From contig OZ252099.1 of assembly GCA_965248305.1 (NCBI GenBank), positions 2,416,338-2,480,337 on the forward strand: a stretch of DNA of 64,000 nucleotides. The letters are read 5' to 3'. The stretch is from Bryobacterales bacterium. Its GTDB lineage: Bacteria > Acidobacteriota > Terriglobia > Bryobacterales > UBA6623. The notes below the pieces were generated by a model. It ran no database searches. It worked only from the letters and a program-made list of their open reading frames with translations, and was not told the DNA's origin. Below, in pieces: positions 2,126-24,480 of the stretch. The first letter of the stretch is position 1. The number at the start of each line of letters is the position of its first letter. A program made the position numbers and the translations under genes.

Positions 2126-4828
2126 ATGGTCGCCTCGATCGGCAAGATCCTCTCCTCCGTCCACGGCGTCGCCTATTACGAACGCGACGGCCACCACGCC
2201 CGCGGCGATCCCGCCCACCGCGAGGCCAGCGCCTGGGTTGGCCGCGGAGCCGCCGCGCTCGGCCTCTCCGGCGCCGTCGACCGCGCGCCCTTCAAGGCCG
2301 TGCTTGAGGGCCGCGTCCCTGGAGGTCCCCGCCTTGGCCGCCGCGACCGGCACGGCAACGTCAACCACCGCCCGGGCCGCGACATCACCCTCTCCGCCCC
2401 CAAGTCCGTCTCCCTGCTCGCCCTCGTGGGCGGCGACGGGCGAATCGTCGCCGCCCACGAGAAGGCGGTCCGTGCCACGTTGGAGTGGATCGAGTCCAAC
2501 GCCGTCGAAACCCGCCTCAAGGATCGCACCACCGGCGCGATCGTCCGCGCGGGCGGGCAGGGCATGGTCGCCGCCACCTTCCGTCACGACACCTCCCGCA
2601 ACCTCGATCCCCAGCTGCACACCCATTGCGTCGTCGCCAACATGGTCCGCTGCCCCGAGGGCAAGTGGCGGACCATGGTCAACGACGGCCTCTACAACTC
2701 CAAGTTGGCCGTCGGCGCGATCTATCGGGCCGCACTGGCGCGGGGCCTCCGTGAACTCGGATACCGGCTCGACCGGACCCACGCCGACGGGCGCTTCGAG
2801 ATCGTCGGCGTGGCGCGGGACTTCGTCCGTGCCTTCTCGACGCGACGGGCTGAGATCGAGGCGGCGCTTGCCGGACCCGGCCCGGGAGGCTTGGGCGCTC
2901 GGCCCGGCCTGACAGGCCTAGCCGCGCTGGTGACGCGCTCCGGCAAGCGCGACACGACCCGCGAAGAGGCCCGGCGCGCATGGTCCCTGCAGGCCAAAGG
3001 TCTGGGATTCCGCCCGGCAGCCCTGATCACGGAGGCGCAGGCCCGCCGGGCGTCAGCCCTGACCGAGCCCGGCAGCGCGCCGGCCAGAGCGGCGGAAGCC
3101 GTCCGGGACGCGGTGCGCGGCCTCGGCGAGCGCGACGTCGTGTTTCCCCATGCCGCCCTGCTCGTCGTCGCCCTCGGGCGCGAGCCCGGTGCCGTTACAG
3201 TCACAGAGGCCGAAACCGCGATCCGGGCGCTGCGCGCCGACCGGCGGCTGTTTCCGGCCGAAGGCTTCCGCCGCGGCCCGCACTGGACCTACGACCCGGC
3301 CATCGCCGCCGAGTCCGAGTCCATCGCCTGGATGCGCGCCGGGCTCGGTGCCGCCCGGGCCCTGCTGCGGCTGACGACCGTGGGAGGGCTGCTGCGCGGC
3401 AGCGGCCTCTTCCGCAAGCGCCGCGAGGCGCTCGCCTTTGCGCTTGCCTCCGGGGACCGGGTCATCGGTCTGCAAGGGTTTGAGGGCTCCGGCAAGGCCC
3501 CGATGCTCGACAGGCTGCGCGCAGTTGCCGAAACCGCAGCCTGTCAGGTGATCGGCCTCGCCCTGTCCGATCCAGAAGCGCGCGCCCTGCAGCGCGCCTC
3601 CGGAATCAGAAGCGAATCCCTGCCCCACTTCCTCGCCCGCCACGCCCTCGTTGCTGCGGGGCAGGTCAGCGCCCGCGTTCGGCAAGGACTGCGAGCCTCC
3701 TTTGATCGCACGCTGCAGGTCGTCGACCGGGCCTCGCACCTCTCCAGCGCGCAAATGTGCGACCTGCTGCGGGTCGCGGCCTCGCTGCGCGTCGCCCGAC
3801 TTGTCCTGCTCGGCGACGGCAACGGATCCGAAGACGCTCACTGGGGCGGGCCCTTCACCCAGTTGCTACGCGCCGGCATGCCGGCGGCGGTCATGACTGA
3901 GGCCGACCGCCGCCGCGAGGCCGATTGGAGCGAGGCGGCCCGTGCCCGCCTCGCCGTAGCCGTCCGCGCCGCGTTCGCCAAGCTAAGCGATCACGTCTCG
4001 GAGGTACCCTTGGAGCGTCTGGCCGTGGCCGCCGCGGCACTGTGGCTGGCCCTGCCCGCTACTGAGCGCGAGGCGACCGCAGTGCTGGCCCAGAGCCCCG
4101 CACTGCGTCAGGAGATCAACGCAGCGATCCGCAGTGGCCTCGTCCGGGAAGGCGCCGTGAGCGGTCCCGCCTGGCGGGGCCGGCGGCTGGTGCCTGTCGA
4201 CCTGAGCCGTGCCGCGCTCGCCGACCCGGCGAGCTACTTGCCGGGCGACACGGCGGTGTTCCTGCGCCCCTACAAGAGGCTCGGTGTCGGCAAGGGTTCC
4301 GAACGCACGGTGGCGGCAGTCGACGCGGAAACATCCGTCGTCTACCTCACCGGCCCAGGCGGCCGAGTCACGCACTGGAAGCCGGGCTCGCTCGCCGCAG
4401 CCGTCGGCGGCGTCGAGGTCTTCCGCGACGAGTCCCTGGAACTTCGCGCCGGAGACCGTGTCCGCTGGACGCACGACGATCTCGACTTGGGCATCTCCGC
4501 GAGCCTTCCCGCGCGAGTCGAAGCGGTCGGCACCGGCCGCGTCCGATTCCGGCTCGAGGACGGACGCATCGCCGAAGTCGTGGATCCCGAGCAACGGCTC
4601 CGCCACCTGGAGTGGGCATGGGCTTCCCTATCCGGCACCCCTCGATCCCGTGCGGCGAAGAACGTCATCGTCGCCGTTGAGACCGACGATCCCCGCCTCG
4701 CCGCGCATGCGGACCTGTACAGAGCCGTTGGTTCCGTTCCAGGCTGGGCGCGTCTCGTGTCCGACAACACCGCCCGGCTCGCCGACCTCCTTGAAGGTGC
4801 CAGCGGCGAGCGCCCTGACCGTTCCTAG
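2126..4828 (+). CDS. MOBF (TrwC/TraI-like) relaxase with degenerate helicase region
   Basis: N-terminal YYERDG, DITLSAPKSVS and HUH motif HDTSRNLDPQLHTH. Walker A/B are degraded (GFEGSGKAP, VVDRAS). Confidence 0.9.
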   Translation: MVASIGKILSSVHGVAYYERDGHHARGDPAHREASAWVGRGAAALGLSGAVDRAPFKAVLEGRVPGGPRLGRRDRHGNVNHRPGRDITLSAPKSVSLLALVGGDGRIVAAHEKAVRATLEWIESNAVETRLKDRTTGAIVRAGGQGMVAATFRHDTSRNLDPQLHTHCVVANMVRCPEGKWRTMVNDGLYNSKLAVGAIYRAALARGLRELGYRLDRTHADGRFEIVGVARDFVRAFSTRRAEIEAALAGPGPGGLGARPGLTGLAALVTRSGKRDTTREEARRAWSLQAKGLGFRPAALITEAQARRASALTEPGSAPARAAEAVRDAVRGLGERDVVFPHAALLVVALGREPGAVTVTEAETAIRALRADRRLFPAEGFRRGPHWTYDPAIAAESESIAWMRAGLGAARALLRLTTVGGLLRGSGLFRKRREALAFALASGDRVIGLQGFEGSGKAPMLDRLRAVAETAACQVIGLALSDPEARALQRASGIRSESLPHFLARHALVAAGQVSARVRQGLRASFDRTLQVVDRASHLSSAQMCDLLRVAASLRVARLVLLGDGNGSEDAHWGGPFTQLLRAGMPAAVMTEADRRREADWSEAARARLAVAVRAAFAKLSDHVSEVPLERLAVAAAALWLALPATEREATAVLAQSPALRQEINAAIRSGLVREGAVSGPAWRGRRLVPVDLSRAALADPASYLPGDTAVFLRPYKRLGVGKGSERTVAAVDAETSVVYLTGPGGRVTHWKPGSLAAAVGGVEVFRDESLELRAGDRVRWTHDDLDLGISASLPARVEAVGTGRVRFRLEDGRIAEVVDPEQRLRHLEWAWASLSGTPRSRAAKNVIVAVETDDPRLAAHADLYRAVGSVPGWARLVSDNTARLADLLEGASGERPDRS

Positions 4829-5268
4829 GCATCCCGGAGCGCCCGCCGGCCGCCGCAGCGTGGCAGCTTGGGGTTTTGGAACCACCCGCGCTCCTAGCCA
4901 CGCAGCCGCATCCGGGATAGACTCGACAGTATTGCGGACACCATGCACACGATTGCGCGAGTAGCCCCGTAGTGCCTCACAGACAAGACCACTCTCGGCG
5001 TCAACATTGCCGCCTCATTCGACCACTCCCGGTCGCTAGCTCCTCTCCCGCTGCTGCTCAGCAGCAGCACACTGTGCCCCCCCCCCCCCCACGATCGCCG
5101 CCAGCGCCGGCCACGGCATCGCGGCCTAGCCCTCCTGAATCAGCGCGCAGGGGGCCAGCCGTATCAGCGCATCCTCGGCCGTGCTGGCGTGGATCGTCGA
5201 GGTGGCGCCGACCGGAACTGCAGATCGCAGTTCGACCAAGCCCGATCCGCTGCTTCCGGGGCCCAGGC

Positions 5269-5519: not shown

Positions 5520-6104
5520 TTCGGTCTCCCATGTAGTGGCGCAGCCACGCTCCGAAGGTGCGGATCTCGCCAGCCGCCTTGCTGCGGGGGTACGCCTCCG
5601 CCACGGACAGGCCCAGGGGCAGGCAGTGCGCGAAGGCGGCACGCGCCCCGATCCGGGCCGGCGCGACCGCGGCCCCGTAGTCGCGCGCGGCGGGACTTGG
5701 TTCAGTACGACCGCGAAGGGAAGCGAGGCGAGAGCGCAAAGGCGGGCGGTGGCGTCCAGGGCTGCGATGTCGAACAGTCCGGGGCGGAGCGGGACCAGGG
5801 CCAGGTCGGCGGCGCGGGCCGCAGCCAGCGCGGCGGATTCGGAGTGCGGGGCGGTATCGATCACGACGAGGCCCGCGCCGGAGTGGCGGGCGGTGCCAAG
5901 GGCAGCCTCGAGGCGGGCGGCGGGAACGGCGCCCACGAACGGGGAGCGCCCCCGCTTGTCGCCCCAGAGGGCGGCGCTGGCCTGGGGGTCGAGGTCGACC
6001 AGGGCGGCCGAGCCGCCAGCGCCCTCGAAATCGGCGGCCACATGGACGGCCAGCGTGGTCTTGCCGGTGCCGCCCTTCTGGGCTAACAGTGCGATGGTGT
6101 ACAT
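5512..6104 (-). pseudogene. parA: ParA-family partition ATPase, frameshifted
   Basis: Motifs AQKGGTGKTT, VDLDPQAS, VIDTAP and VLNQ. The C-terminus (RAAFAHCLPLGLSV...AAGEI) is in frame 5512..5739. Confidence 0.85.
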
Positions 6105-6305
6105 TGCGTCCGCAACTCTGCCGAGTCTATCCCGGATGCGGCCGCCTGGCTAGGGGCGCGGGCCCTGCCACGCTCCCACACTGCTGCGATGCCACGAAGT
6201 CGGCGGCAGCCAACTGGCCCCCCACGTCTGGTCTGCCGCCATCGGCGTTTCCTGAGGAATGGAGCGTCTTGATCGACTCGTCCGGACCCAGGTCGTCCAG
6301 CCAGC
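6033..6305. repeat. Diverged direct repeat (parA 5' end plus upstream region), copy 1
   Basis: Aligns by eye with 26662..26932, e.g. gtacattgcgtccgc, ccgagtctatcccggat, ccccacgtctggtctgccgcc, ggaatggagcgtcttgatc. Confidence 0.85.
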
Positions 6306-6591
6306 TGGTGTGCCGGGGGATACGGACAAACCGTCCGTTTTCGCGACGGGCACTACGGGCCAAGCTCGCCTTGCCGCTCTCTCCGCAATTGCGCGTCGCA
6401 ACTGCTTGACGACTAACAGGGGACCGGTTTATTCCGGGCCGTCGTCAGGCCGCGACACAGCCTCCCTGGCCCGGTCGTCGTCGCGGAACCGGGCGAGCCA
6501 CTCAAGGACCTCTCCCACGCGCAGCACGCCACCCCGGTGTGGAATCCGCCCTACCACCTCATCGCGGAATCGCTCGAAGTTGTCTGCCAGC

Positions 6592-7158
6592 TCAGGCCGG
6601 TCGGAGTGCCCAGCCGCCTTCTCCCGCCTCCACGCGGTAGACCTCCGCCGCTCGGCGACTACTGCTGGCCTCGCGGTCAAGGCGCACTACGACGTCGATC
6701 GCCGTGGGGATGGCGGCGCAAGCGGCCTCCCACGAGAAGCCGTCCGCCAGGCTCCATGTCGCGACCTGACGGAGTGCCGTCTCGGCCGAGGTCGCACCTA
6801 TCGCAAGCAAGCTACCGTGATGGCGGCCGTCGCCTAGTGCCCGCAGAACCTCTCCGGCCTCGGGAGGGCACACGTTGGCGAAAACGAGGCGCCTGGGCGA
6901 GTCCCGGAGCGCTCGCGCCACGGCTTCGCGAGGCGATTCGGCAGGGTCGCCGCGCCGCAGGGGGACAAACTCGCGGAGCGGACCGTCCAAGTCCAGCTCT
7001 TCGCAGTCGTCCAGGACAAGCGCGGGCTCGTTGGACGGGAGCAGGCGTGCCAGCGCCTGCAGCAGGGTTGGCTTGCCTGCCCCGGTGATGCCGGTCACGA
7101 GGACGTTGCGCCGTTGGCTCAGGCACGGGCCGCAAGCCTCAAGCACCCCGGGGGCCAT
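6592..7158 (-). pseudogene. Truncated, degenerate VirB11/CpaF-type ATPase
   Basis: NVLVTGITGAGKPTLLQAL, LVLDDCEEL and ALRDSPRRLV. The N-terminal domain is missing and the catalytic motifs are altered. Confidence 0.7.
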
Positions 7159-7209
7159 GCGCCCATACCGAAAAGGTCTCTCGATACGTTGGTTGCCATA
7201 GAACCCACG

Positions 7210-8753: not shown

Positions 8754-9121
8754 GGCGCAGCTCTATACTTGGATAGCTTGGCAAGATCCTCCAGCTCAAA
8801 TCGCAGGCGTTGCGCTAAGAATTCGAGTGCTCAATCCAACTAGTCCTTCGGCCGCGAGTTTCATAAGGTGGTTCAGGGCTTCATACGAATTGTGAACATT
8901 CCCATCATGTGCAAAGTGCGGACGTGACGTGGTGCCGTTGCCACCCCTCTCGATGAAGTTCCGCGAGACCTTGGGACGCGCGGTGCAGGCGTTCCCGTTG
9001 GATGGCTTCAGCCCATGTTGTCGTGGGGGCTCCGATTCCTTCAACAAGGCCTTTGTGAGGCGAACGGTTCGACCCAGCCAGCTTCGTTGTGAACAATCTT
9101 CTGCCAAGCTTAGACAAGTAT

Positions 9122-11711
9122 CAGACTTCGTTACATCGGAACTCTCTGCAAAGAGGCCTAGAGCCTCGTAACTAGCTGCTGGGTCAAGCTTTCACGCTCC
9201 CTCCCCGGCCGCATCCGGACTTGACTTGCGCCCCAGAACATGCTATTTTGAATGCATATGTATTCGCCCGCCAAACTGCCCGCGCCCACTGGCCTGCCCG
9301 CCGCTCTGCCGCTCCAACCCCCGCACGCCACGCCCATCAGCGCGCGCCTCAGCATGCTGCGCGAGGGCGACCGCGTCGTCTACTTCGTGCACACCGACCC
9401 CGTCTGCTCGCACACGGCCGACCACAAGCTAGAGCGCAATCTCTGCCTGGCCCGCTTCGCCCTGTTCGGCCTCGCTACGCAGTCCGAACTGGCCCGCGCC
9501 CACGGCATCAGCCAGAGCACCGTCTCGCGCGCCGTGCAGCGGCTGCAGGTGCAGGGTGAGCTTGGCTTCGCGCCCGCCCCCAAGCCGCGCCGCCCCGATG
9601 GCATCGTGGACCCCGCGCAGCTGGCCCAGGCCGCCCGCATGCTGCGGTCCGGGCTCAGCCTGTACCGCGTGGCCCAGCAACTGGGCGTCTCGCAATCGAC
9701 GCTGTGGCGCTACACCCAACAGGGCTTGCTACCGGCCAGCCAGTGCCTGCCACGGCGCCGCGCCGGCGCGCCCGCCGAGCGTGACAGTGACGCTCAGGGA
9801 GCGGGCCCGCAGCCCGGCGGCGCGGCGCCCAGTGCGCCGCCGTCGGCGGCCCCCGGCAAGGAAGACCGCAACCGGCGTGACGCCGCCGCCCCGCGCGGCC
9901 GCGCGGCGCACGACACGGCGGGCCGCGTAGCGGCCAGCCTGGGGGCGCTCGACGGGCGCGCCCCGCGCTTCGCCGCCGCCGCGGCCGTCAGCGGGGGCGG
10001 CGTGCTGACCGCCCTGCCGAGCCTGCTGCAGGCCGGCCTGCTGCGCCACCTCGACCAGCTGACGCTACCCAAGGGCTTCTACGGCCTGCAGTCGCTGCTG
10101 CTGCTGTGGGCCTTCCTGCTGCTGGGCCGGGTGCGTTGCGCCGAGCGGCTGCGCTACCAGCAGCCCGGCGAGTGGGGCGCCCTGTTGGGCCTGGACCGCT
10201 GCCCCTGCCCGCGCACCCTGCGCCGCCGCACGCACCAGCTGGCCGCTGCCAAGGGGCTGCCGGCCTGGGTCGGCTGCCTGACCCAGGACTGGTGTGCAGA
10301 CGATCCGGAGGCCGTCGCCACGCTGTTCGTCGATGGCCACGTGCAGGTCTACAGCGGTCAGGGCCGGCTGCCGAAACATTTCGTGACCCGCCAGAAGCTG
10401 GCCCTGCCGGCCTCGGTCGGCTACTGGGTGCACGCGCTGGGCGGGGCGCCGCTGCTGTGCTTGCACCGCCAGATAGACGCCGGCATGGTGTCTGAGATCT
10501 GGAACGGGATTGTGCCGCAGTTGCGCCAGCTGGGCCTGCTGGCAGGCGCTGGCGCACCACGCCTGACGCTGGTCTTCGACCGCGAGGGCTGGAGCCCGCG
10601 CCTGTTCCGCGAGCTGCGCGCGCTGGGCATCGCGGTGGTGACTTGGATCAAGGGCTCGCAGGCGCAGCGCTGGCCGGATAGCGACTTCCGGGAGGCCGTC
10701 ATCCCAGTGCGCGCCCCGGGCGGGTCGGCCCGCCTGGAGGGCCAGCTGGCCGAGCGACCGTACGATCTGGGCGCAGGCTGCCAGGCGCGCGAGATCCGCT
10801 TCTGGATCGACCGCCGTGTGCGCGGCACGGGCCAGCGCGGCCAGCCGCGCAAGCCGCTCGAGCTGGCGGGTCGGCCGGGGCCGGACCAGCGCCAGCCCGC
10901 GCTGCTGACCACGCATCCCGACCTCACGGCCGAGCAAGCGGCGGGCCTGCTGCGCTCGCGCTGGACGCAGGAGAACTTCTTCAAGTATCTGCGCGCCGAG
11001 TTCGGCCTCGACACCCTGCCCGAGCATGCCCTGGTGGAGGTCGAGGCCGACGCCTGGGTCGTCAACCCGGCCTGCCGCACCATCGGCAAGGCGCTCAAGC
11101 AAGCCCGCAACTCGGTCGGCAACCTGCGCCGCAAGCTGGCCCTGCAAGCCGACGCCGGATCCGCCCCAGCGCGCGCGCTGGAAGCGCGCATCCAGACTTG
11201 CGACCAGACCATCCAAGGCCTGCTGCTGGCACGCAAGGTGACCGACCAGCACATCTTGGCCGGCGAGCTCTCGCCGGAGGCACGGCTGCAGGCCCTGCCC
11301 CAACCGCTGCGCCTACTGCTAGACACCCTGCGCATGCTGGCCTACCGCGCCGAAACAGCGATGACGACCGCGGTTGCGCCCGCGCTCGACAATCCCGACA
11401 CCGCCCGCAGCCTGCTCAAGTCGCTGTTTCAGGCTGACGCCAGCCTGCACCCTGACGAGTCAGCCGGGACCCTCACCGTGCGCCTGCTGCACCAGCCGAC
11501 CCGCGCCCAGGATCGCGCCCTGGCCCCCTTGCTCGACGAGCTCAACCGCACGCGCACCGTCTTCCCCGGCACCCAACTCCGTTTGGTGTACCGCATGCTG
11601 TCGGACGACCTGCCCTGCTCAGCCTCCTCCCAGCCCACCCCGGCCAACCCCAAGCCGCCGCTCCCTGCATCCAAACTATCCAAACCAAATGAAACGGTGT
11701 AACGAAGTCTG
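9122..11711 (+). mobile_element. 2590-bp insertion sequence (unclassified DDE type), copy 1
   Basis: TIR CAGACTTCGTTACA at both ends. 5-bp TSD AGTAT at 9117-9121 and 11712-11716. Second copy at 20000..22389. Confidence 0.92.
9252..11702 (+). CDS. Large transposase with two N-terminal HTH domains
   Basis: HTH motifs QSELARAHGISQSTVSR and YRVAQQLGVSQSTLWR. DDE-like motifs FVDGH, VFDREG and RWTQENFFK. The ORF fills the IS. Confidence 0.85.
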   Translation: MHMYSPAKLPAPTGLPAALPLQPPHATPISARLSMLREGDRVVYFVHTDPVCSHTADHKLERNLCLARFALFGLATQSELARAHGISQSTVSRAVQRLQVQGELGFAPAPKPRRPDGIVDPAQLAQAARMLRSGLSLYRVAQQLGVSQSTLWRYTQQGLLPASQCLPRRRAGAPAERDSDAQGAGPQPGGAAPSAPPSAAPGKEDRNRRDAAAPRGRAAHDTAGRVAASLGALDGRAPRFAAAAAVSGGGVLTALPSLLQAGLLRHLDQLTLPKGFYGLQSLLLLWAFLLLGRVRCAERLRYQQPGEWGALLGLDRCPCPRTLRRRTHQLAAAKGLPAWVGCLTQDWCADDPEAVATLFVDGHVQVYSGQGRLPKHFVTRQKLALPASVGYWVHALGGAPLLCLHRQIDAGMVSEIWNGIVPQLRQLGLLAGAGAPRLTLVFDREGWSPRLFRELRALGIAVVTWIKGSQAQRWPDSDFREAVIPVRAPGGSARLEGQLAERPYDLGAGCQAREIRFWIDRRVRGTGQRGQPRKPLELAGRPGPDQRQPALLTTHPDLTAEQAAGLLRSRWTQENFFKYLRAEFGLDTLPEHALVEVEADAWVVNPACRTIGKALKQARNSVGNLRRKLALQADAGSAPARALEARIQTCDQTIQGLLLARKVTDQHILAGELSPEARLQALPQPLRLLLDTLRMLAYRAETAMTTAVAPALDNPDTARSLLKSLFQADASLHPDESAGTLTVRLLHQPTRAQDRALAPLLDELNRTRTVFPGTQLRLVYRMLSDDLPCSASSQPTPANPKPPLPASKLSKPNETV

Positions 11712-11842
11712 AGTATGAAAGCAACGGGATTGCGCAGGCGATCTTGCCACACTCGCACAAGGAGCACATCGCTCGATGCGGGTGGAATGAGGCACTGCAG
11801 CGGGGCCATTCACTGGTACACTCTTGTCGGAGGAGGATCGGT

Positions 11843-12382
11843 ATGCAAGCGATGCCTGTTGAGGTTGACGACGCGATTGTCTTACTGCTCGGTGCCCCCT
11901 CCGATTCGCTCGCGCGCCATGGCCGCATCGATGGCATCACCCGCCTCGAAAAACTAATCTTCCTAGTCGAGCACGAGACTGACCTCCGAGACCTGCTGAC
12001 GGAGCATGCCGACTTTGAGGCGTACAACTTCGGGCCTTTCTCGGGAAAGGTCTATCAGGCTGTCGATACCCTTGTCGCCGCAGGCCTCCTAGAGGACTCG
12101 GCTGAGCTAGCGAGTTCGCGCGAGGATTCTTGGGAAGCGGAGAAGGTCGTTGGCACGCAACCGGCTGATCCGTACGCGACACGGAACTTCGCCCTCACCG
12201 AGCGAGGTCGGAAGTACTACGAGGCGCTGATCGATGAACTTCCTCCGTTGACGGAGAAGCGGCTCGAAGAGTTCAAGACCAGGTTCGGTGCGCTCCCATT
12301 GCGACAACTGATCCGCTACGTCTACAAGAAATACCCCGACTTCACGACGAACTCTCTGATTAAGGACGAGATCCTGAGGTAG
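11843..12382 (+). CDS. SocA/Panacea/YwgA-like winged-helix protein
   Basis: GITRLEKLIFL...FEAYNFGPFS...FALTERG...LIRYVYKKYP, with a strong RBS GGAGGAGG. Confidence 0.7.
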   Translation: MQAMPVEVDDAIVLLLGAPSDSLARHGRIDGITRLEKLIFLVEHETDLRDLLTEHADFEAYNFGPFSGKVYQAVDTLVAAGLLEDSAELASSREDSWEAEKVVGTQPADPYATRNFALTERGRKYYEALIDELPPLTEKRLEEFKTRFGALPLRQLIRYVYKKYPDFTTNSLIKDEILR

Positions 12383-12383
12383 C

Positions 12384-12953
12384 GTGGAGGGTGTGGAACT
12401 AGTACGGGTCATATCGCCTGTTGTTCTGTTCGTTGCCATCACCGGAGCGATAGTCAGAACGACGAGCTTGCGCGGTGAGCTAGTACAGAAATGGCGTGAC
12501 AGGGTCCGAGTCGCCGAGGCAGGTCTTAGCGAGCGCGCTGCGACAGAATTGCGTACGTTGCAACAGAGCATCCACGATCTGTTGGGCACCGGGGTTAGCT
12601 TCAAACCCGCTCATGTAGTGGCCGACCCAGGGGAGCTGCTATCGAGCGTCAAACGGATTCAACAGCTGATCGACGCCAGGGATGGCATACAGGGAAGCTA
12701 CAACAAGCTGCTCAGCATTCCGAGTGTGTTTTTCTGGGGACTCGTCGTCGCTGATTCTGGCGTCGCATTGTTCCTCGTTGGCTTCGGGGGATTCTGGTCA
12801 CACACCCTTCTTGAACTGATCGGATGGATCGGCTGCGTGCTCTTCGTATTTTCTGCGTTCACCTTAGCATCAGCTCTGTGGCGTTATCGTAAGCACCACG
12901 AGAGGCTGACGCATGCGGACATCCTGTCGTCCCCCCGGGGGAGCAATGCCTGA
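12384..12953 (+). CDS. Hypothetical membrane protein (about 3 TM segments)
   Basis: One N-terminal and two C-terminal hydrophobic helices. Starts 1 bp after the upstream stop. Confidence 0.7.
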   Translation: MEGVELVRVISPVVLFVAITGAIVRTTSLRGELVQKWRDRVRVAEAGLSERAATELRTLQQSIHDLLGTGVSFKPAHVVADPGELLSSVKRIQQLIDARDGIQGSYNKLLSIPSVFFWGLVVADSGVALFLVGFGGFWSHTLLELIGWIGCVLFVFSAFTLASALWRYRKHHERLTHADILSSPRGSNA

Positions 12954-13383
12954 AACGAACGCGGGAGAACGCAGGATGGAAAGGCCCCTATTAGAGTGGT
13001 TGAAGGCGAAGCGCTGGCTGCGAGAAGACACGATCGTGTCGCGGGAACTCCCTTGGATGGGTCGGAGAGTGGACCTCGCGATCCTTACCCGCTCTGGGCG
13101 CACGACCGCCTACGAACTCAAGATTCGCGATAACAGGCGTGCGATCCAACAGGCTGCGTACAACAAGCTAGCGTTTGATCGAAGCTATGTGGTTACGGAA
13201 AGTGAGCCAATGCAGATCAACAAGACGCTAGCTCAAGAAGTTGGTGTCGGATTCATCCTGCTACGACGAGATGGGTCGACCCAAGTAATTCAACGCTCGT
13301 CTACATACGCCCCAAGGCGGACGTTGCGGCAACGTCTCGTGGCTGCGATTCGATCGATGGAAATGGACCATGTTCGACGTTGA
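12946..13383 (+). CDS. Small PD-(D/E)XK nuclease-fold protein
   Basis: RELPWMGRRVDLA...AYELK...AIQQA...YVV...GVGFI. Overlaps both neighbours. Confidence 0.75.
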   Translation: MPETNAGERRMERPLLEWLKAKRWLREDTIVSRELPWMGRRVDLAILTRSGRTTAYELKIRDNRRAIQQAAYNKLAFDRSYVVTESEPMQINKTLAQEVGVGFILLRRDGSTQVIQRSSTYAPRRTLRQRLVAAIRSMEMDHVRR

Positions 13384-14575
13384 GTTCGAGCACTACCTGA
13401 CTTACGGGGCCTCGGACCAACAAACGGTGCGCCGTTTGGCTGGTCAGTTCACCGGGCTCATGATCCCCGGTACAGTCGCGGCGTTTCAACGCGAAGGAAC
13501 CGGTGGCTTCGCCCTCACGCTCTCGGCTACGGAGGCGCAGATACCCTACGTAATCGACCCGCGATTCCCGCTCTTTCTGCAACCTCTTTCTGCGCCGAAG
13601 AAGTCTCACGGAGCTCTGGCTGCAATCCTGGGAAAACCTGACCTCGTTTCACAACAAGAACCCTCAGTCGCGAAGTTCAGTAGGGAATTTATCGACGATA
13701 TCGCCAAGCGTTGGGCAGAGTTCAACGCAGACTACCGCGACTCCGCGAGCGCGAAGTTCGACAAGTACGCCAAGAGGCTGAACGAAGCTGTAGTACCCGA
13801 GGACGCCAAGGGTCCAAAGTACGTGATTCCACCGTATACGATCTGTGAGGGACGCGAAGATCCGTGGTGGGCGATTTCGCGCAGGTTCTTTGACCGAACG
13901 CAGCACCACCTCGGAGGAGGCCACTGCGTCCAGGTCGTCGCCGCTAAGGAAGCTCGATATCTCGGCGAGCTCTTAGCCGACGTCAAGGGGGACCGTGTTG
14001 GCGTTTGGGTGTCATCCTTGAACGAGTTGCAGACCGGGGAGACCGTCCTCGCTGAGTACGCGACCGCGATTGCGAGGGCCAGACAAAGAACCTTCGCGAT
14101 CTACGGCGGTTTCTTCAGTGTGCTGCTGTCGAGCGTCGGCCTAGGTGGCTCGTGCCACGGTATCGGGTTCGGGGAATACCGTAACTATTTGGAACTTCCT
14201 CAGTCTGGGCCTCCGCCCGCCCGCTACTACCTCCCCGTTGTCCACCGTTACGTTTCGCAGGAACTCGCGTACCAACTGTGGCGGTTTGATCCCTTCCTAG
14301 CAGCGTGCAGCTGCGCTGCGTGTGGGGGCAAATCACCTGCGGACCTTGACTACCACTCCTTGATGCGACACTCCGTCTTGTGCAGATCACAGGAGATCCA
14401 GGCGTGGGTAGGGCTCGGTCTCGACGAATCCATTCGCCGTCTCGAGCAGGAGCGCCAGGAGTTCCTGGAACACGTAGTTGCGGCTGGTCTCCCTCGGTTG
14501 GCCGAGGAAGGCGCGCTGCACAACGCGGAGCACTTGCAGAAGTGGATCAACGCCCTTTCCTTGACCAGAGAGTGA
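13370..14575 (+). CDS. Putative TIM-barrel protein with TGT-like Zn site
   Basis: YVIDP, YGGFFS...GSCHGIGFGEYR, and C-terminal CSCAAC...H resembling the CxCxxC-H Zn motif of tRNA-guanine transglycosylases. Confidence 0.6.
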   Translation: MFDVEFEHYLTYGASDQQTVRRLAGQFTGLMIPGTVAAFQREGTGGFALTLSATEAQIPYVIDPRFPLFLQPLSAPKKSHGALAAILGKPDLVSQQEPSVAKFSREFIDDIAKRWAEFNADYRDSASAKFDKYAKRLNEAVVPEDAKGPKYVIPPYTICEGREDPWWAISRRFFDRTQHHLGGGHCVQVVAAKEARYLGELLADVKGDRVGVWVSSLNELQTGETVLAEYATAIARARQRTFAIYGGFFSVLLSSVGLGGSCHGIGFGEYRNYLELPQSGPPPARYYLPVVHRYVSQELAYQLWRFDPFLAACSCAACGGKSPADLDYHSLMRHSVLCRSQEIQAWVGLGLDESIRRLEQERQEFLEHVVAAGLPRLAEEGALHNAEHLQKWINALSLTRE

Positions 14576-15058
14576 TCAGACTCGACTGCCAGCCGTTCTC
14601 GCTTCCGCCAGCTACTTTCTGGCCTCTTGTCGAGACCTTGTCTGATCGTCGTTTTTCCCAATAAATGCAAATTTTCTGGCCCATTCCGCCAGTAGTACGA
14701 ACGCATATCCGACGTTGCGCGATCAGCTATCCCGCCGTGCCAAGACGGTCAACAAGGGGAGTGGCTGCGTTTTCGAGGACACATGAGATGTAAGCATTCA
14801 GGTTTCGGGGCGCTACAGTTAGGCTCTGCCGCAGAACCACGAGAGTAGCGCAGAGGCAGGCGAACCGGATTTCGTCGGCAACCGCAACGCTGAGGCAAGG
14901 AGTTCCGGGGCAGCCGGAGGAGCAACCGGTCGGCGTCGGTGGAGCGGGTGGATGGCGTCGGGCAGGGCTCGATGGGCAAGCAAGAAAATATCGGCTGCGC
15001 ACTTGACTTTGCCTCGGCAACCTTGCCATCGTAGGATCGGGCGGTCAGCCCGGTCGTT

Positions 15059-16882
15059 ATGGGCAGGACGAAGTCCAGCAAGAAAGGACAGCCAGTCGGG
15101 GGGCGGCCCGCGTGCGCTCGCTGCGAGCAACTCCAACGCGCACTCGACGCTGCACAGTCCGACTTGCAGGCTGCGCAGGAACGGGAGGCTGGGCTGCAAG
15201 CCCAGCTGGCGAACCTGCAACGGTCGCTGTTCGGACGCAAGAGCGAGGCCACGCCAGCGGGCGGGGACGACCCGTCCGCCACGGCGACAGTCGCTGCCGA
15301 CCCGTCGGCCGCCGAGACAGCGGCCGGGGAAACGCCCGCGCCGGATCCGGCCGCGAGCAAGGATCCGGCGGTCCGGCCGCGCAGGAAGCGCGGGCGGGAA
15401 CCGGGTTCGCCGACCCCGCCGCGCGAGCAGCGGCCCGACCTGCCCGTGGTGTTCGAGTGGCTGGACGTGCCCGAGCAGGAGCGCCGCTGTCCGGACTGCG
15501 GCACCGCCTACGTGCCGTGCGGGCACAAGATCAGCTGGTTGTACGAGCTGGTCTGGAACGCGCTGGTGCGCAAGGTGGTGCGCCAGCGCTATGGTCCGGA
15601 CTGCGACTGTTGCTCAGCCCGGCCGGTGATCGCCCCGCCGGCTCCCCGGCTGGGCACCAGCCAGTTGGGCACCAGTGTGTGGGCCTGGTGTCTGGTGCAG
15701 GTCTACGCGCTGTTCCGTCCGCAGGCGGCGGTCGCCCGGGATCTGGCGGCACTGGGACTGCGCGTGCCGCAGTCGACGCTGTCAACGGGGCTGCGGCGGC
15801 TCGCGCATCTGTTCGAACCGCTGGATGCGGCGATCGGAGAGTATCCACAGCAGCAGCCGGTGGCCCAGGCCGACGAGACCTCCTGGCCAGTGCAGTGGCT
15901 GGCCCCGAGCGAGGACGACAACAAGGACCCGCCTCCCCGCGGGCGACCCAAGCCGAAGTTCTGGCTGTGGGCCTGTCTGGCCGGCGACACGGTCCGCATG
16001 CGGATCCTGCCGACCCGGGGCCTGGACTCCGCCCGGCAATTGCTCGATTCGTTGGTCGGCCAGGGCGGGTTGATCGTGCTGGTGTGTGACTGCTACAGCA
16101 CGTACAAGGCCTTTGCCAAGCAGTTTCCGAACCTGGTGGTGCTCTCCCATTGCTGGGTGCATATCCGCCGCAATTTCGTGCGGGCCGGCACCGGTCACCC
16201 GGAACTCAAGGCGTGGGCACAGGAGTGGGTCGAGCGCATCGGCGCATTGTTCCAGCTGAACCGACAGCGGCTCCAGCAGTGGGCTCCGCAGCAACCGCTG
16301 GAGCGGCAAAGCGGGGCGTTCCAGGCGCTCCAGCAGCAGTTGCAAGCGCGAGTGGAAGAGTTGTTCGAGCGCGCCCGGGAAGAGGGCGGGGATCGCAAGC
16401 TCGACTGGATTCTGCTCGACCAGGTGGGCCAAGGCCGCAGCCAGCACGGTGCCGAGTTGGCCCGTGTGGATGCGCAAGGACGGGCCTTGGGGGCCTTGCT
16501 GAGTCACCGGGAATCGCTGAGCCGCTTCGTGGCGGACCCGCGCATCCCGCTCGACAACAATTTGTCGGAGCGGGTTCTGCGGGGGCCGGTCATCGCCCGC
16601 TACACCAGCTTCGGCTCGGGCGGGCCGGACGGTGCGCGAGCGGCGGGTCTGCTGTTCGGCGTACTCGCGACCGTGCGCCTGGCGGGCCTGAACCCGTATA
16701 CCTGGATGCTGGACTGGCTGGCGGCCTGTGCCCGCCATGGCAACAAGGCCCCGCAACAGCTCGATCCCTGGCTGCCGTGGCGCCTGAGCGAGCAGCGTCG
16801 GGAACAACTCAGCAAGGCCCCGGTGGACTGGATCCCGTCTGGCGCCAGCAGCGGGGACACCGAGCTGGACAAGGCGGCCTGA
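15059..16882 (+). CDS. IS66-family transposase (TnpC-like)
   Basis: Leucine zipper...LFGRKSE, Zn finger CPDCG, QADET, DCYSTY, HCWVHIRR, LDNNLSERVLR and TVRLAGLNPY. The annotated start is a non-canonical codon. Confidence 0.9.
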   Translation: MGRTKSSKKGQPVGGRPACARCEQLQRALDAAQSDLQAAQEREAGLQAQLANLQRSLFGRKSEATPAGGDDPSATATVAADPSAAETAAGETPAPDPAASKDPAVRPRRKRGREPGSPTPPREQRPDLPVVFEWLDVPEQERRCPDCGTAYVPCGHKISWLYELVWNALVRKVVRQRYGPDCDCCSARPVIAPPAPRLGTSQLGTSVWAWCLVQVYALFRPQAAVARDLAALGLRVPQSTLSTGLRRLAHLFEPLDAAIGEYPQQQPVAQADETSWPVQWLAPSEDDNKDPPPRGRPKPKFWLWACLAGDTVRMRILPTRGLDSARQLLDSLVGQGGLIVLVCDCYSTYKAFAKQFPNLVVLSHCWVHIRRNFVRAGTGHPELKAWAQEWVERIGALFQLNRQRLQQWAPQQPLERQSGAFQALQQQLQARVEELFERAREEGGDRKLDWILLDQVGQGRSQHGAELARVDAQGRALGALLSHRESLSRFVADPRIPLDNNLSERVLRGPVIARYTSFGSGGPDGARAAGLLFGVLATVRLAGLNPYTWMLDWLAACARHGNKAPQQLDPWLPWRLSEQRREQLSKAPVDWIPSGASSGDTELDKAA

Positions 16883-17806
16883 ATGGCCCGTTCCGCCGCC
16901 GCGCTGGACCCGCGCATCGTGCGGCTGGCCTCGACCGCCTTCTGCGGCCACCGCCTGCGACGGAGCCAGATTGCGGACATCCAGGAGATCGTCACCAGCT
17001 TGCCCCTGCTGAGCCGCACCGAACTGGGCCACACCGTCTGCGAGCACCTGCGGTGGCAGACCCCTCGTGGCAGCAACCGCATCCAACTGGCGCTGCGTCT
17101 GCTGGAGGAACTCGAACGGCTCTCGCTCCTGGCCCTGCCCGCCCGCCAAGGCCCCGGACGGGGCCGCCAAGGGCCCCTCTCGCTGGGCGAGCGCAGTGCG
17201 CCCCAAGCCCCGCTCGACGGCCCCCTGCCACAGCTCGAGCCGCTGCGCTTGCGGCTCGTCAGCGGCCGCGATGAGGCCGCCCTGGGGAACGAATTCCTCG
17301 CACGCTACCATCCACTGGGCTATCGCCAGCCCATCGGCTCCCACCTGCGCTACTTCCTCGAAGACCGTCAGGGGCGCCTGCTGGGCTGCCTGTTGTACGA
17401 CTTCGCCGCCCGCTACCTGGCGGTGCGGGACCGCTGGATCGGCTGGCAGGACCAGCCCCACCGGCCGCTGGAGCGGGTTGTGCGGCAAGCCCGTTTCCTG
17501 CTGTTTCCCTGGGTGCGCGTAAAATGCCTGGCGTCGAAGGTCCTGGGGCTGAGCTTGCGCCAGCTGGCCGCGGACTGGCAGCGCGTCCATGGCGTGCTGC
17601 CCGTGCTGGTCGAAACCTATGTCAGCGACCAGCACAAGGGAACCTGCTACCGGGCCTCGAACTGGCACTATCTGGGACAGACCCAGGCGCGCGGTGCCTG
17701 GGGCACGGCGCCAGCGAAGACGCCCAAGGCGGTCTTCGTGTATCCGCTGCAGCGGGACTGGCAGACGGTCCTGCTCGGACCCACACGCCCTGCGCGCTCC
17801 CGCTAG
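16883..17806 (+). CDS. DUF4338 / DruA-like domain protein inside the IS66
   Basis: SRTELGHTVCEHLRW, YHPLGY..PIG.HLRY, RDRWIGW, RFLLFPWVRVKCLASKVL, LVETYV and GTCYRASNW..LG.T. Confidence 0.8.
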   Translation: MARSAAALDPRIVRLASTAFCGHRLRRSQIADIQEIVTSLPLLSRTELGHTVCEHLRWQTPRGSNRIQLALRLLEELERLSLLALPARQGPGRGRQGPLSLGERSAPQAPLDGPLPQLEPLRLRLVSGRDEAALGNEFLARYHPLGYRQPIGSHLRYFLEDRQGRLLGCLLYDFAARYLAVRDRWIGWQDQPHRPLERVVRQARFLLFPWVRVKCLASKVLGLSLRQLAADWQRVHGVLPVLVETYVSDQHKGTCYRASNWHYLGQTQARGAWGTAPAKTPKAVFVYPLQRDWQTVLLGPTRPARSR

Positions 17807-19400: not shown

Positions 19401-22400
19401 GTGGACTTCAAGCTCGATCGCTACACTTGGGGAGCACGGGTTCTACCGGTGTACCTCACGGCCGCACCGGCCGTGCTAGCGGTCGCCGCGACTCTCCCGG
19501 AAGGGCTGAACCTGCCGCTCGCCGGGGCGTCGGCCATCGTTTTCCTGCCGCTCTCGTATTTCATGAGCCAAGTCGCCTCGGACTTCGGGAAGCGGCTGGA
19601 GCCGGCTTTGTGGGATTCCTGGGGCGGCCCGCCCACAACGCGATTCCTGCGACACGACAACGAGCAATTCAACCCTGCCACACGCGCGCGGATCCATGCC
19701 CAATTGCGAGCGTTGGAACTCAGGGTCCCTACGGCCGAAGAGGAAAAAGCGGATCGAGAGCGGACACTCGAGCTCTATGGCTCAGCTGTTGATGATATTC
19801 GTCGGCTGACCCGCGATTCTGAACGTTTCCATCTCGTCTACAACGGCAACATCGAGTACGGATTTCGGAGAAATCTGCTCGGCCTGAAGCCAGTTGGCCT
19901 TGCGATCACCGCACTCGCGCTGGTGGCTTCGGGATGGTCCCTCTTTCACGGATGGCATACCGATGGTGTCATTCTACCGGTACCCTTCGTCACTACTCTC
20001 AGACTTCGTTACACCGTTTCATTTGGGTTGGATAGTTTGGATGCAGGGAGCGGCGGCTTGGGGTTGGCCGGGGTGGGCTGGGAGGAGGCTGAGCAGGGCA
20101 GGTCGTCCGACAGCATGCGGTAGACCAAACGGAGGTGGGTGCCGGGGAAGACGGTGCGCGTGCGGTTGAGCTCGTCGAGCAAGGGGGCCAGGGCGCGATC
20201 CTGGGCGCGGGTCGGCTGGTGCAGCAGGCGCACGGTGAGGGTCCCGGCTGACTCGTCAGGGTGCAGGCTGGCGTCAGCCTGCAACAGCGACTTGAGCAGG
20301 CTGCGGGCGGTGTCGGGATTGTCGAGCGCGGGCGCAACCGCGGTCGTCATCGCTGTTTCGGCGCGGTAGGCCAGCAGGCGCAGGGTGTCTAGCAGTAGGC
20401 GCAGCGGTTGGGGCAGGGCCTGCAGCCGTGCCTCCGGCGAGAGCTCGCCGGCCAAGATGTGCTGGTCGGTCACCTTGCGTGCCAGCAGCAGGCCTTGGAT
20501 GGTCTGGTCGCAAGTCTGGATGCGCGCTGCCAGCGCGCGCGCTGGGGCGGATCCGGCGTCGGCTTGCAGGGCCAGCATGCGGCGCAGGTTGCCGACCGAG
20601 TTGCGGGCTTGCTTGAGCGCCTTGCCGATGGTGCGGCAGGCCGGGTTGACGACCCAGGCGTCGGCCTCGACCTCCACCAGGGCATGCGCGGGCAGGGTGT
20701 CGAGGCCGAACTCGGCGCGCAGATACTGGAAGAAGTTCTCCTGCGTCCAGCGCGCGCGCAGCAGGCCCGCCGCTTGCTCGGCCGTGAGGTCGGGATGCGT
20801 GGTCAGCAGCGCGGGCTGGCGCTGCTCCGGCCCCGGCCGACCCGCCAGCGCGAGCGGCTTGCGCGGCTGGCCGCGCTGGCCCGTGCCGCGCACACGGCGG
20901 TCGATCCAGAAGCGGATCTCGCGCGCCTGGCAGCCCGCGCCCAGAGCGTACGGTCGCTCGGCCAGCTGGCCCTCCAGGCGGGCCGACCCGCCCGGGGCGC
21001 GCACTGGGATGACGGCCTCCCGGAAGTCGCTATCCGGCCAGCGCTGCGCCTGCGAGCCCTTGATCCAAGTCACCACCGCGATGCCCAGCGCGCGCAGCTC
21101 GCGGAACAGGCGCGGGCTCCAGCCCTCGCGGTCGAAGACCAGCGTCAGGCGTGGTGCGCCAGCGCCTGCCAGCAGGCCCAGCTGGCGCAACTGCGGCACC
21201 ATCCCGTTCCAGATCTCAGACACCATGCCGGCGTCTATCTGGCGGTGCAAGCACAGCAGCGGCGCCCCGCCCAGCGCGTGCACCCAGTAGCCGACCGAGG
21301 CCGGCAGGGCCAGCTTCTGGCGGGTCACGAAATGTTTCGGCAGCCGGCCCTGACCGCTGTAGACCTGCACGTGGCCATCGACGAACAGCGTGGCGACGGC
21401 CTCCGGATCGTCTGCACACCAGGCCTGGGTCAGGCAGCCGACCCAGGCCGGCAGCCCCTTGGCAGCGGCCAGCTGGCGCGTGCGGCGGCGCAGGCTGCGC
21501 GGGCAGGGGCAGCGGTCCAGGCCCAACAGGGCGCCCCACTCGCCGGGCTGCTGGTAGCGCAGCCGCTCGGCGCAACGCACCCGGCCCAGCAGCAGGAAGG
21601 CCCACAGCAGCAGCAGCGACTGCAGGCCGTAGAAGCCCTTGGGCAGCGTCAGCTGGTCGAGGTGGCGCAGCAGGCCGGCCTGCAGCAGGCTCGGCAGGGC
21701 GGTCAGCACGCCGCCCCCGCTGACGGCCGCGGCGGCGGCGAAGCGCGGGGCGGCGCCGTGGCAGGCACTGGCTGGCCGGTAGCAAGCCCTGTTGGGTGTA
21801 GCGCCACAGCGTCGATTGCGAGACGCCCAGTTGCTGGGCCACGCGGTACAGGCTGAGCCCGGACCGCAGCATGCGGGCGGCCTGGGCCAGCTGCGCGGGG
21901 TCCACGATGCCATCGGGGCGGCGCGGCTTGGGGGCGGGCGCGAAGCCAAGCTCACCCTGCACCTGCAGCCGCTGCACGGCGCGCGAGACGGTGCTCTGGC
22001 TGATGCCGTGGGCGCGGGCCAGTTCGGACTGCGTAGCGAGGCCGAACAGGGCGAAGCGGGCCAGGCAGAGATTGCGCTCTAGCTTGTGGTCGGCCGTGTG
22101 CGAGCAGACGGGGTCGGTGTGCACGAAGTAGACGACGCGGTCGCCCTCGCGCAGCATGCTGAGGCGCGCGCTGATGGGCGTGGCGTGCGGGGGTTGGAGC
22201 GGCAGAGCGGCGGGCAGGCCAGTGGGCGCGGGCAGTTTGGCGGGCGAATACATATGCATTCAAAATAGCATGTTCTGGGGCGCAAGTCAAGTCCGGATGC
22301 GGCCGGGGAGGGAGCGTGAAAGCTTGACCCAGCAGCTAGTTACGAGGCTCTAGGCCTCTTTGCAGAGAGTTCCGATGTAACGAAGTCTGACTCTTCTCAA

Positions 22401-22518
22401 CACCTGTGTTGCCCTCGGGTGGCTGATCGGGGTTCGTTCGACGACTGTTCGCATCACCGCCGACCGCTACGCTCGATACCTCCTGGAGGCAGCACTCGAC
22501 CTGGAGACCCCGACTTGA
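19401..22518 (+). pseudogene. Multi-TM membrane protein (candidate effector) interrupted by IS
   Basis: DRYTWGARVLP...GKRLEPALW..WGGPPTTRFLR...NIEYGFRRNL. Removing the IS and one TSD restores FVTTL-LNTCVALGW...DLETPT*. Confidence 0.85.
20000..22389 (-). mobile_element. Insertion sequence copy 2 with a 200-bp internal deletion (transposase frameshifted)
   Basis: Same TIRs as 9122..11711. TSD ACTCT at 19995-19999 and 22390-22394. Length 2390 vs 2590 bp. Confidence 0.92.
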
Positions 22519-22520
22519 GC

Positions 22521-23405: not shown

Positions 23406-23488
23406 GGCCACGAGAACCGAGGCGCCTGCACGGATACCGGCCCCACCCGCCAAATCAGGACTAGGATCGAACCACCAAGGAGCCACTC

Positions 23489-23680
23489 GTGTCGAGGGTG
23501 AGCAACCTGCTCCGGCAGGTCGAGACGCAAGACCCGCAGCTAGCTGACGACCTGAAGCGGGAGTTGGAGGCGCTGTCCGGGCGGCGTGCATTCGGCCTCA
23601 ACTTCGAGCGACACACCCCCGAGACGGTAGAGCTGCCGCGCCGCCCGGTGCGCAGGGGTGACAAGGCCCGATTCCTGTCG
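23489..23680 (+). pseudogene. N-terminal fragment of a type III-like Mod DNA methyltransferase
   Basis: MSRVSNLLRQV...RRAFGLNFERHTPETVELP.RPVRRGDK, then the similarity is lost. Confidence 0.6.
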
Positions 23681-23899
23681 GCACGGTGCGTGGGGTGGCG
23701 CGAGTTGATGCAAGCGTGGGCGGCCTGCTTGGGCGGCAGTGCAGGCGATGCGGTGCGGTATGGGTAACCACATCAGCGATCGGGACTGGCAGGAAGCCTG
23801 TCGAGAAGCCCGTATGGCTTGGGAGGCGTGGGCAGTGGCTACTCAGGTGGGAGAGTAGCTAACGCCTACGGCGGGTAGGCAGCAGTCCGATCAGCCCTG

Positions 23900-24300: not shown

Positions 24301-24480
24301 GAGCGACGGTAAAAGGCCGCTCTCCCGCTGCTCGACCCGGATCAAGGCTACGCGCGGCGGCGGTGTTTCCCAAGTCAGCGCAGAAGTCGTCAAACGGGGT
24401 TCCGCCCAGCGGTGCGGGGTCACAACAGCCGGACGTGCCGACGGCCGCTTCAATCGCTGGCGAGACCATCGACTCAACGC

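Follow-up and report, generated by a model that had tools for sequence, protein, structure and literature searches.

The assembly GCA_965248305.1 of a Bryobacterales bacterium carries, on contig OZ252099.1, a cassette of four plus-strand open reading frames, here called ORF1 to ORF4, at positions 11843-14575 of the 64,000-nucleotide (nt) stretch that we analysed and refer to as the window. Within 2.7 kb the genes encode, in order, a protein resembling the SocA/Panacea (PanA) family, a membrane protein, a minimal nuclease and a TIM barrel of the tRNA-guanine transglycosylase (TGT) kind. Here we show, using profile searches, structure modelling and a scan of one genome per species that found 43 loci, that the four genes form one translationally coupled unit, patchily distributed and conserved in gene order across phyla.

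The ORF2 start codon, GTG, follows the ORF1 stop with a spacing of 1 nt, and the ATG codons of ORF3 (12946) and ORF4 overlap the preceding genes by 8 nt and 14 nt, respectively. A longer TTG frame of ORF1 is open from 11744 (11744-12382) and the ORF3 frame from 12913 (12913-13383), for which ATG 12946 is the likelier start. The Shine-Dalgarno sequence GGAGGAGG, read directly from the DNA, lies 6 nt upstream of the ORF1 ATG at 11843. Over 11501-14500 the guanine plus cytosine (GC) content is 0.57-0.59, lower than in the neighbouring segments with the insertion sequence (IS) elements, which range from 0.66 to 0.76 (0.71-0.76 over 9001-11500 and 0.66-0.71 over 14501-16000). The original prediction, made from the letters of the window, had described four coupled and uninterrupted reading frames of lower GC content than their flanks, and the junctions and composition agree with it in full. 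A scan for sigma-70 promoters returned no plus-strand site and one minus-strand site (0.9 expected), and a terminator consensus scan one site (3.0 expected), neither being above chance.

As judged from its predicted structure, ORF4 is a TGT-like zinc barrel in a family without annotation. Searches of Pfam, NCBIfam, PADLOC and PHROGs gave no match for the protein, and PF01702 (TGT) goes unmatched, even at E <= 10, in all 22 family members tested. The AlphaFold2 model, built from 27 sequences (predicted local distance difference test, pLDDT, 88.8; predicted template-modelling score, pTM, 0.89), was compared with 48,161 representatives of the PDB; the five best matches are all transglycosylase-family barrels, and the (beta/alpha)8 barrel lies nearer to TGT-family structures (TGT, ArcTGT, DpdA, QTRT2, Cap10) than to other TIM barrels. 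Other searches did not discriminate: hhalign of the ORF4 family against 29 bacterial TGTs gave a non-significant probability of 2-5%, the ORF4 profile found eight PDB chain sequences at E <= 10 (the best an annexin at 0.13) and no TGT-family chain among them, and Foldseek against PDB and BFVD returned weak, mixed TIM-barrel matches from which P4 beta was absent. The fold comparison that the original prediction had proposed for ORF4 comes out in favour of the TGT/DpdA family by structure, with no sequence match to Beta_protein or sce7725_fam. The family is large, with 347 relatives at E <= 0.001 among 8000 candidates scored, and the 120 relatives among the matches listed are all unnamed or called "hypothetical protein". 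At E <= 0.001 a profile of both clades recovers 1095 clusters, defined at 50% identity, and 622 of them reach E <= 1e-30.

The pattern CSCAAC...H of ORF4 corresponds to C313, C315, C318 and H334. None of these four residues varies among 27 close relatives, and with both clades aligned C313 and H334 stay fixed in 22 of 22 sequences, C315 and C318 in at least 90%. In one Microbacterium locus (L030) the homologue has replaced C315 and C318 and kept C313 and H334, and may be a zinc-free barrel variant; a 38%-identical sister locus, also from Microbacterium (L031), lies outside the alignment (ORF4 homologue of L030/L031 at 6001-7206). Further invariant residues are D63, S79, Y156, E219, G246-G247, H263, G264, G266 and E269, and one homologue (P0248) has no equivalents of H263 and E269. 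The active sites of TIM barrels sit at the ends of the strands, and in the ORF4 model most invariant residues lie within, or at most five residues past, the ends of predicted barrel strands, the exceptions being Y156, in the poorly defined region of the fourth strand, and S79, at the start of a helix. The polar residues on the catalytic side of the modelled barrel do not vary, and ORF4 is therefore most likely a working enzyme. In TGTs the catalytic aspartates act as nucleophile and general acid; by strand order D63 of ORF4 may correspond to the first of these, H263 and E269 are invariant alternatives, and in the best, non-significant local hhalign register E219 stands opposite the glutamate of the TGT "GGLSVGE" stretch. 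Two longer forms of ORF4 (P0122 and P0133) considered as fusions were set aside as a tail extension and a probable mis-join, and no nuclease fusion was found among them.

ORF3 is a PD-(D/E)XK nuclease, of the restriction-endonuclease-like fold with its D...(D/E)xK motif. It matches the NCBIfam family sce7726_fam (NF033832) with an E-value of 3.6e-8 and 33.5 bits against a cut-off of 70 bits, and is thus related to, and outside, the curated family; of the distant ORF3 members one reaches 28.5 bits and three others have no match. The motif reads D54...E68-L-K70...Q79-Q80-A81, with D54, E68, K70 and Q80 invariant in 28 of 28 family members (numbered from the open frame at 12913; the family alignment, numbered from M12, has D43, E57, K59 and Q69). 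Aligned by hhalign, the ORF3 family and P4 cII agree over 98 columns with a probability of 72.5% and an E-value of 3.2e-5, the catalytic motifs being in register.

ORF2 contains three hydrophobic 19-mers on the Kyte-Doolittle scale (6-24, 109-127 and 145-163), arranged as an N-terminal segment, a soluble stretch of about 85 amino acids (aa) and a C-terminal two-segment hairpin. This layout is kept: proteins at the ORF2 position of the operon have at least two hydrophobic segments in 32 of 32 cases and three in 24. No family match was found in four libraries. Contigs of relatives from two sequencing runs carry a 15-nt insertion just behind window position 12383, at the ORF1/ORF2 junction; because it nearly repeats the start of ORF2, it suggests that this start region varies between strains.

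The first gene product, ORF1, is SocA/Panacea-like by sequence and would be an antitoxin or regulator. Its own match to SocA_Panacea (PF13274) covers profile positions 3-105 of 113 but, at 14.4 bits (E 0.073), falls short of the 25.7-bit threshold; in the family, that profile is matched at E <= 0.01 by 6 of 26 members, the best at 1.3e-5. It also matches PadR in Pfam (E 0.0094), the PADLOC model PDC-M19A (7.3e-12, over 110 of 294 profile positions) and phrog_14939 (7.4e-10); its profile found a single PDB chain sequence (E 0.72). Invariant in the family alignment are T33-R34 and K37 of a TRLEKL stretch and the G64-P65-x-S67 motif. Searches of a protein atlas with ORF1 and ORF2 returned unnamed clusters, of which one related to ORF1 has PF13274 in 21% of its members. 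Four longer forms of ORF1 were found, none fused to a membrane segment. Two of them (P0392 and P0393, 321 aa) carry the ORF1-like domain behind an N-terminal region that has PF12441, a CopG-type antitoxin domain, with two similar repeats, and these fusions fit a DNA-binding or antitoxin role of the ORF1 family; the other two are probably over-long gene calls. The original prediction had named the four products as a SocA/Panacea-like protein, a membrane protein, a PD-(D/E)XK nuclease and a TGT-like zinc barrel, and had singled out the CSCAAC...H and D...ELK...QQA patterns; each assignment stands, with ORF1 itself below the Pfam cut-off for SocA_Panacea.

How far is the arrangement conserved? 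Homologues of ORF1, ORF3 and ORF4 are colinear in 31 of 32 close loci (ORF4 identity 38-68%), the exception (L019) beginning inside ORF4. ORF2 was detectable by tblastn in 20 of the 32, and in 23 a frame of about 190 aa could be read at its position and was checked for hydrophobic segments. At 11 distant loci (ORF4 identity 22-31%) ORF1 accompanies ORF4 without exception and an ORF3-type nuclease occupies the corresponding place in the operon. The proteins there measure about 190/200/145/450 aa, a layout from which two loci (L039 and L040) depart in having no membrane gene. These two carry a three-gene variant with a tyrosine recombinase upstream and, directly downstream, a 395-aa protein with YnfU-like zinc-ribbon motifs; in another locus (L006) an extra ORF of about 431 aa (3593-4888) between the ORF1 and ORF2 homologues interrupts the tight operon. 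Because the four-gene arrangement is kept as a unit in 42 other loci, it goes beyond chance, and conservation of the gene neighbourhood, which the original prediction had named beforehand as one of the points at which it could fail, is strong. The record titles of the loci name Latescibacterota, several classes of Actinomycetota, Chloroflexi, Gammaproteobacteria, Sumerlaeota, Ignavibacteria, Gemmatimonadales, Planctomycetota and Acidobacteriota.

Among 61 genomes of the same genus, family and order, ORF4 occurs in the window genome only, with a 20-bit match in one other. Most loci lie on chromosomal contigs of 0.3-5.9 Mb. A single one of 72,556 plasmid records, Arthrobacter pSI-1, has the cassette, as four consecutive "hypothetical protein" genes of 184, 200, 148 and 409 aa about 1 kb downstream of a relaxase gene, with one further hypothetical gene between; a tblastn search of a phage collection found no match. 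Four RNA-library runs from two studies yielded contigs of near relatives (90-99% alike) that span all three junctions and cover each of the four genes in part, with gaps in ORF4. Their match to the window ends shortly before 11712 on the left and shortly after 14577-14580 on the right, and because they diverge at these points the common unit is the cassette itself. In the flanks of 23 loci, 15 of 123 scanned ORFs, at 8 loci, match PADLOC models at E <= 1e-5 (no baseline rate is available), including type I and type IIG restriction-modification, HmaB, Dsr1, SduA, HerA and HEC-01. The best explanation is that the cassette is self-contained and horizontally mobile.

In the window the cassette lies between IS elements and downstream of a relaxase gene (Table 1), and the island may well belong to an integrative conjugative or mobilisable element. 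The second Transposase_29 gene matches its profile in two stretches and may be disrupted. Further along, a second stretch of low GC content (0.56-0.60; 22419-26030), where GC and AT skew are strongly negative at 24.5-26.5 kb, may hold a further set of accessory or defence genes.

Table 1. Features of the cassette and its surroundings, in window positions.
Feature	Position	Strand	Description
Leader	11712-11842	+	Shine-Dalgarno GGAGGAGG before ORF1; left limit is the start of the block common to relatives
ORF1	11843-12382	+	179 aa from ATG 11843; SocA/Panacea (PanA)-like, winged-helix-like stretch; predicted antitoxin or regulator
ORF2	12384-12953	+	189 aa, GTG start; membrane protein; predicted membrane effector
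ORF3	12946-13383	+	145 aa; minimal PD-(D/E)XK nuclease with sce7726 and P4 cII as relatives; putative effector that cuts DNA
ORF4	13370-14575	+	401 aa; zinc-bearing TIM barrel of the TGT/DpdA/Cap10 structural superfamily; predicted to be an enzyme that regulates or senses
TrwC relaxase with AAA_30 domain	2126-4828	+	900 aa, 1.1e-79; upstream of cassette
Transposase_29 gene	9252-11702	+	9.6e-85; left flank of cassette
IS66 transposase	15059-16882		Right flank of cassette
DruA-like (PF14236) gene	16883-17806		Directly after IS66 transposase
Transposase_29 gene, second copy	20009-21955	-	5.9e-78
Metallo-beta-lactamase-fold gene	22419-23405		Inside second low-GC stretch
ThiF/E1-like gene	24903-26030	-	Inside second low-GC stretch

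How might the four proteins work together? Three bodies of work bear on this question. According to PMC9122126, the P4 system gop-beta-cII shields Escherichia coli from lambda and P1, gop in the absence of beta is toxic, and the two genes are said to have first been read as a toxin-antitoxin pair; a preprint (bioRxiv 10.1101/2023.04.06.535777) adds that a phage accessory gene triggers cell death via gop-beta-cII. Main-text sections 32-33 of a preprint of October 2026 (bioRxiv 10.64898/2026.10.19.760177), on which our comparison with it rests, name PF14350 "TIM-B", unify it with the TGT/DpdA/Cap10 barrel and give as partners Gop (read as an effector with two transmembrane segments, 2TM), another 2TM family and a restriction-fold nuclease that had not been characterised before, among others; PanA is noted, in an adjacent context, as a partner resembling an antitoxin. 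Finally, PMC10440598 describes PanA antitoxins that neutralise toxins carrying transmembrane regions.

By analogy with these systems, we give an even chance to the reading that the cassette is an anti-phage module of the abortive-infection or toxin-antitoxin type, of the gop-beta-cII/TIM-B kind and built on a zinc-bearing branch of the TGT superfamily. Two effectors, ORF2 and ORF3, would be held silent by two regulators, ORF1 and ORF4. ORF2 would damage the membrane and ORF3 cut DNA. ORF1 may neutralise, or sense for, the adjacent membrane protein, after the example of PanA antitoxins and transmembrane toxins, and ORF4 may control the nuclease and possibly the whole module, as P4 beta restrains Gop and as sce7725/beta proteins are paired with sce7726 nucleases. 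The chemistry of ORF4 would probably be a transfer at the glycosidic bond or of a nucleobase, on nucleic acid, a nucleotide or a partner protein, and would be independent of preQ0 made by the host. Infection would then lift or swamp this control, with the membrane damaged and the DNA cut as a result. The original prediction had proposed a barrel that exchanges or senses bases, coupled to the nuclease, and a membrane effector that the antitoxin-like protein would restrain. A predicted complex of ORF3 with ORF4 scores 0.32, against 0.00 for the best of three controls, with contact agreement between runs of at least 87% and a partner pLDDT of at least 79. Solved complexes reach the mark applied in 116 of 157 cases and mismatched pairs in 2 of 215; at scores of up to 0.60 it is reached by only 18 of the 157 and by both mismatches that passed, counts that are approximate here because self-built alignments were supplied.

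Several observations weigh against this reading. All functional roles in it are assigned by analogy, and the complex prediction lends the ORF3-ORF4 pairing weak support only. None of the 22 ORF4-family members matches PF14350 (Beta_protein), even at E <= 10, and hhalign of the family against P4 beta, a single Beta_protein and a 32-sequence Beta alignment gave probabilities of 0.16-0.2; because no sequence relation to PF14350 is detectable, the parallel between ORF4 and beta rests on fold class and common partners and not on demonstrated orthology. In the non-significant register with TGT described above, no acidic residue stands opposite the TGT nucleophile, and the catalytic residues could not be mapped onto TGT. 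ORF2 has no BLASTP similarity to P4 Gop. ORF3 is co-directional and minimal, whereas the P4 nuclease is convergent and extended (264 aa, as against 145 aa), and ORF3 lacks the terminal extensions of the TIM-B-linked nuclease described in the preprint sections. The PADLOC models gop, beta and cll match the P4 proteins as positive controls (P4 beta at 8.2e-188), but none matches ORF2, ORF3 or ORF4 of the window at E <= 1, nor five ORF3-family and three ORF4-family members at E <= 1e-5. Recognised defence genes are absent among the scanned flanking ORFs of 15 of the 23 loci, again with no baseline rate, and presence in RNA-library contigs does not equate to transcription.

A bolder proposal, which we put forward tentatively and regard as clearly the less probable of the two, is that ORF4 founds a large, unnamed, zinc-bearing transglycosylase branch that operates with no 7-deazaguanine pathway. 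It would carry out a new nucleobase-transfer or base-excision reaction, either on the partner nuclease or PanA-like protein in the manner of Cap10 or on invading nucleic acid, and this chemistry would switch an immune module of four genes that is found in at least nine bacterial lineages.

A different explanation is that the cassette is a restriction-like system: ORF4 would bind DNA in the manner of DpdA and would exchange or remove a base in host DNA as a self mark, or recognise or excise modified bases such as 7-deazaguanines in invading DNA, with ORF3 cutting DNA that is unmarked or damaged and ORF1 and ORF2 as accessories. We consider this unlikely. QueC is needed to make preQ0, and it was not found in the window genome (94.5% complete, one contig) or in any of five other cassette-bearing isolate genomes (actinobacterial; completeness not given), in a search that was positive in 13 of 14 control genomes; two of these five also have no detectable canonical TGT. 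Scans with Pfam, PADLOC and NCBIfam found no DpdB-like ATPase, DpdC, methylase or specificity domain in the cassette, and the nuclease is a bare 145-aa core. Conserved membrane and PanA-like proteins, moreover, typify abortive or toxin-antitoxin modules and not restriction-modification. Because QueC is found in none of the six hosts and no DpdB- or DpdC-like gene is present, a DNA-modification role of the Dpd kind, fed by preQ0, is unlikely, which weakens the nucleic-acid-modification side of the original prediction; ORF4 could still act on other bases or on modified phage DNA.

Somewhat less probable again is that the cassette is an addiction module of plasmids or integrative elements with no anti-phage role, in which the pairs ORF1/ORF2 and/or ORF4/ORF3 kill cells that lose the element. 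Relaxase genes beside the cassette both in the window and on pSI-1 speak for such a module, as do the standing of PanA as a known antitoxin domain, the original reading of gop/beta and the 15 loci without a recognised defence neighbour. Against it stand the chromosomal location of most loci, the near absence from plasmid records, the defence genes beside the other 8 loci and the fact that the closest characterised analogue protects against phages. The addiction and anti-phage roles are compatible with each other. A housekeeping or tRNA-modification operon with ORF4 as a divergent tRNA transglycosylase is very improbable: the top structural matches are tRNA-modifying enzymes, but the window genome carries a separate canonical TGT elsewhere (2.2e-150), ORF4 is confined to one of the 61 related genomes and has no PF01702 match, it stands in a fixed set with a nuclease, a membrane protein and an antitoxin-like protein, and the cassette is a low-GC segment between IS elements.

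What, then, does an anti-phage reading of the cassette add? Enzymes of the TGT family were long regarded as modifiers of tRNA only, DpdA acts on DNA, and Cap10 acts on proteins in immunity. Zinc-less TIM-B proteins are treated as toxin regulators in the preprint sections cited above (bioRxiv 10.64898/2026.10.19.760177). The cassette adds a further widespread family of this superfamily, which has kept the zinc site and has invariant polar residues of its own; because of these features, and of hosts in which QueC was not found, its substrate cannot simply be assumed to be preQ0. As a small, self-contained unit with clear predictions for single genes and pairs, the cassette is tractable for the chemistry by which such barrels restrain effectors, and such work would name four families that are now "hypothetical protein" in RefSeq.

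Among known systems, Dpd, which modifies DNA with 7-deazaguanines and restricts it, has DpdB/DpdC partners that are missing from the cassette, and neither QueC in the hosts nor a PF01702 match in ORF4 links the two. Cap10 is a TGT-family enzyme that attaches deazaguanine to the N-terminus of the cyclase in type IV CBASS (cyclic oligonucleotide-based anti-phage signalling system); the cassette has neither a cyclase nor a QueC-like Cap9, and ORF4 matches Cap10 less well in structure than ArcTGT, TGT or DpdA. A literature search with anti-phage terms found neither "DpdA-like" nor "transglycosylase-like" among the papers listed. The PADLOC candidate system PDC-M19 shares with the cassette the match of ORF1 to PDC-M19A, but ORF2, ORF3 and ORF4 match no PDC-M19 model at E <= 1, and no mention of this system was found in the papers searched. 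The likeness to PanA-PanT lies in the Panacea-like motifs of ORF1 and its place directly upstream of a membrane protein; ORF1, however, is below the Pfam cut-off, neutralisation is a prediction, and the ORF1/ORF2 pair is embedded in a fixed four-gene unit.

PD-Lambda-2 is another defence system with a Beta_protein component, yet none of the four window proteins matches any of its models. Three of the 61 related genomes, the window genome not among them, carry a classical module of the TIM-B type (L047, at 795-3823, a same-genus relative, and L048 and L049) in which a Beta_protein (PF14350, 272 bits) is joined by a cII/sce7726-like nuclease, which is convergent with it, overlaps it by 56 nt and matches PADLOC cll, and by a helix-turn-helix (HTH) metallopeptidase; the Beta_protein of the same-genus relatives matches PD-Lambda-2_C at 6.2e-41. 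With sce7725/sce7726 (NF033831/NF033832) the cassette shares a nuclease that matches sce7726_fam and adjoins a TIM-barrel partner, whereas ORF4 and seven distant relatives do not match sce7725_fam. A search with the sce7725 profile was uninformative, with hits in none of 151 genomes of a phylum sample and none of 14 controls; within the library searched, the papers that contain the names sce7725 and sce7726 do not have them in title or abstract, and one of these texts uses them as an annotation label only.

The original prediction had put the set forward as a candidate for an undescribed system, and Pfam, NCBIfam, RefSeq and PADLOC 2.0 give no system name for the four genes. The word "undescribed" is nevertheless too strong, because the parts list parallels that of P4 gop-beta-cII and of the sce7725/sce7726 or TIM-B class, a parallel that the prediction half foresaw in proposing a comparison with sce7725/beta-family folds. 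RefSeq labels P4 cII "sce7726 family protein" and P4 beta "beta family protein". The cassette differs from gop-beta-cII and the wider TIM-B systems in its added PanA-like first gene and in the CxCxxC...H zinc cluster of ORF4, the Beta_protein of the same-genus relative (L047) having no CxCxxC. It shares with both the combination of a TGT-fold barrel, a restriction-fold nuclease of the sce7726/cII type and a small membrane protein, together with carriage on mobile elements and a toxin-antitoxin-like logic, and the barrel is linked to such a nuclease in 31 of 32 close loci and in all 11 distant ones. The cassette corresponds to no named system, and it is probably a further form of a kind of which a single member, gop-beta-cII, is validated by experiment and which has a single, very recent computational description, TIM-B.

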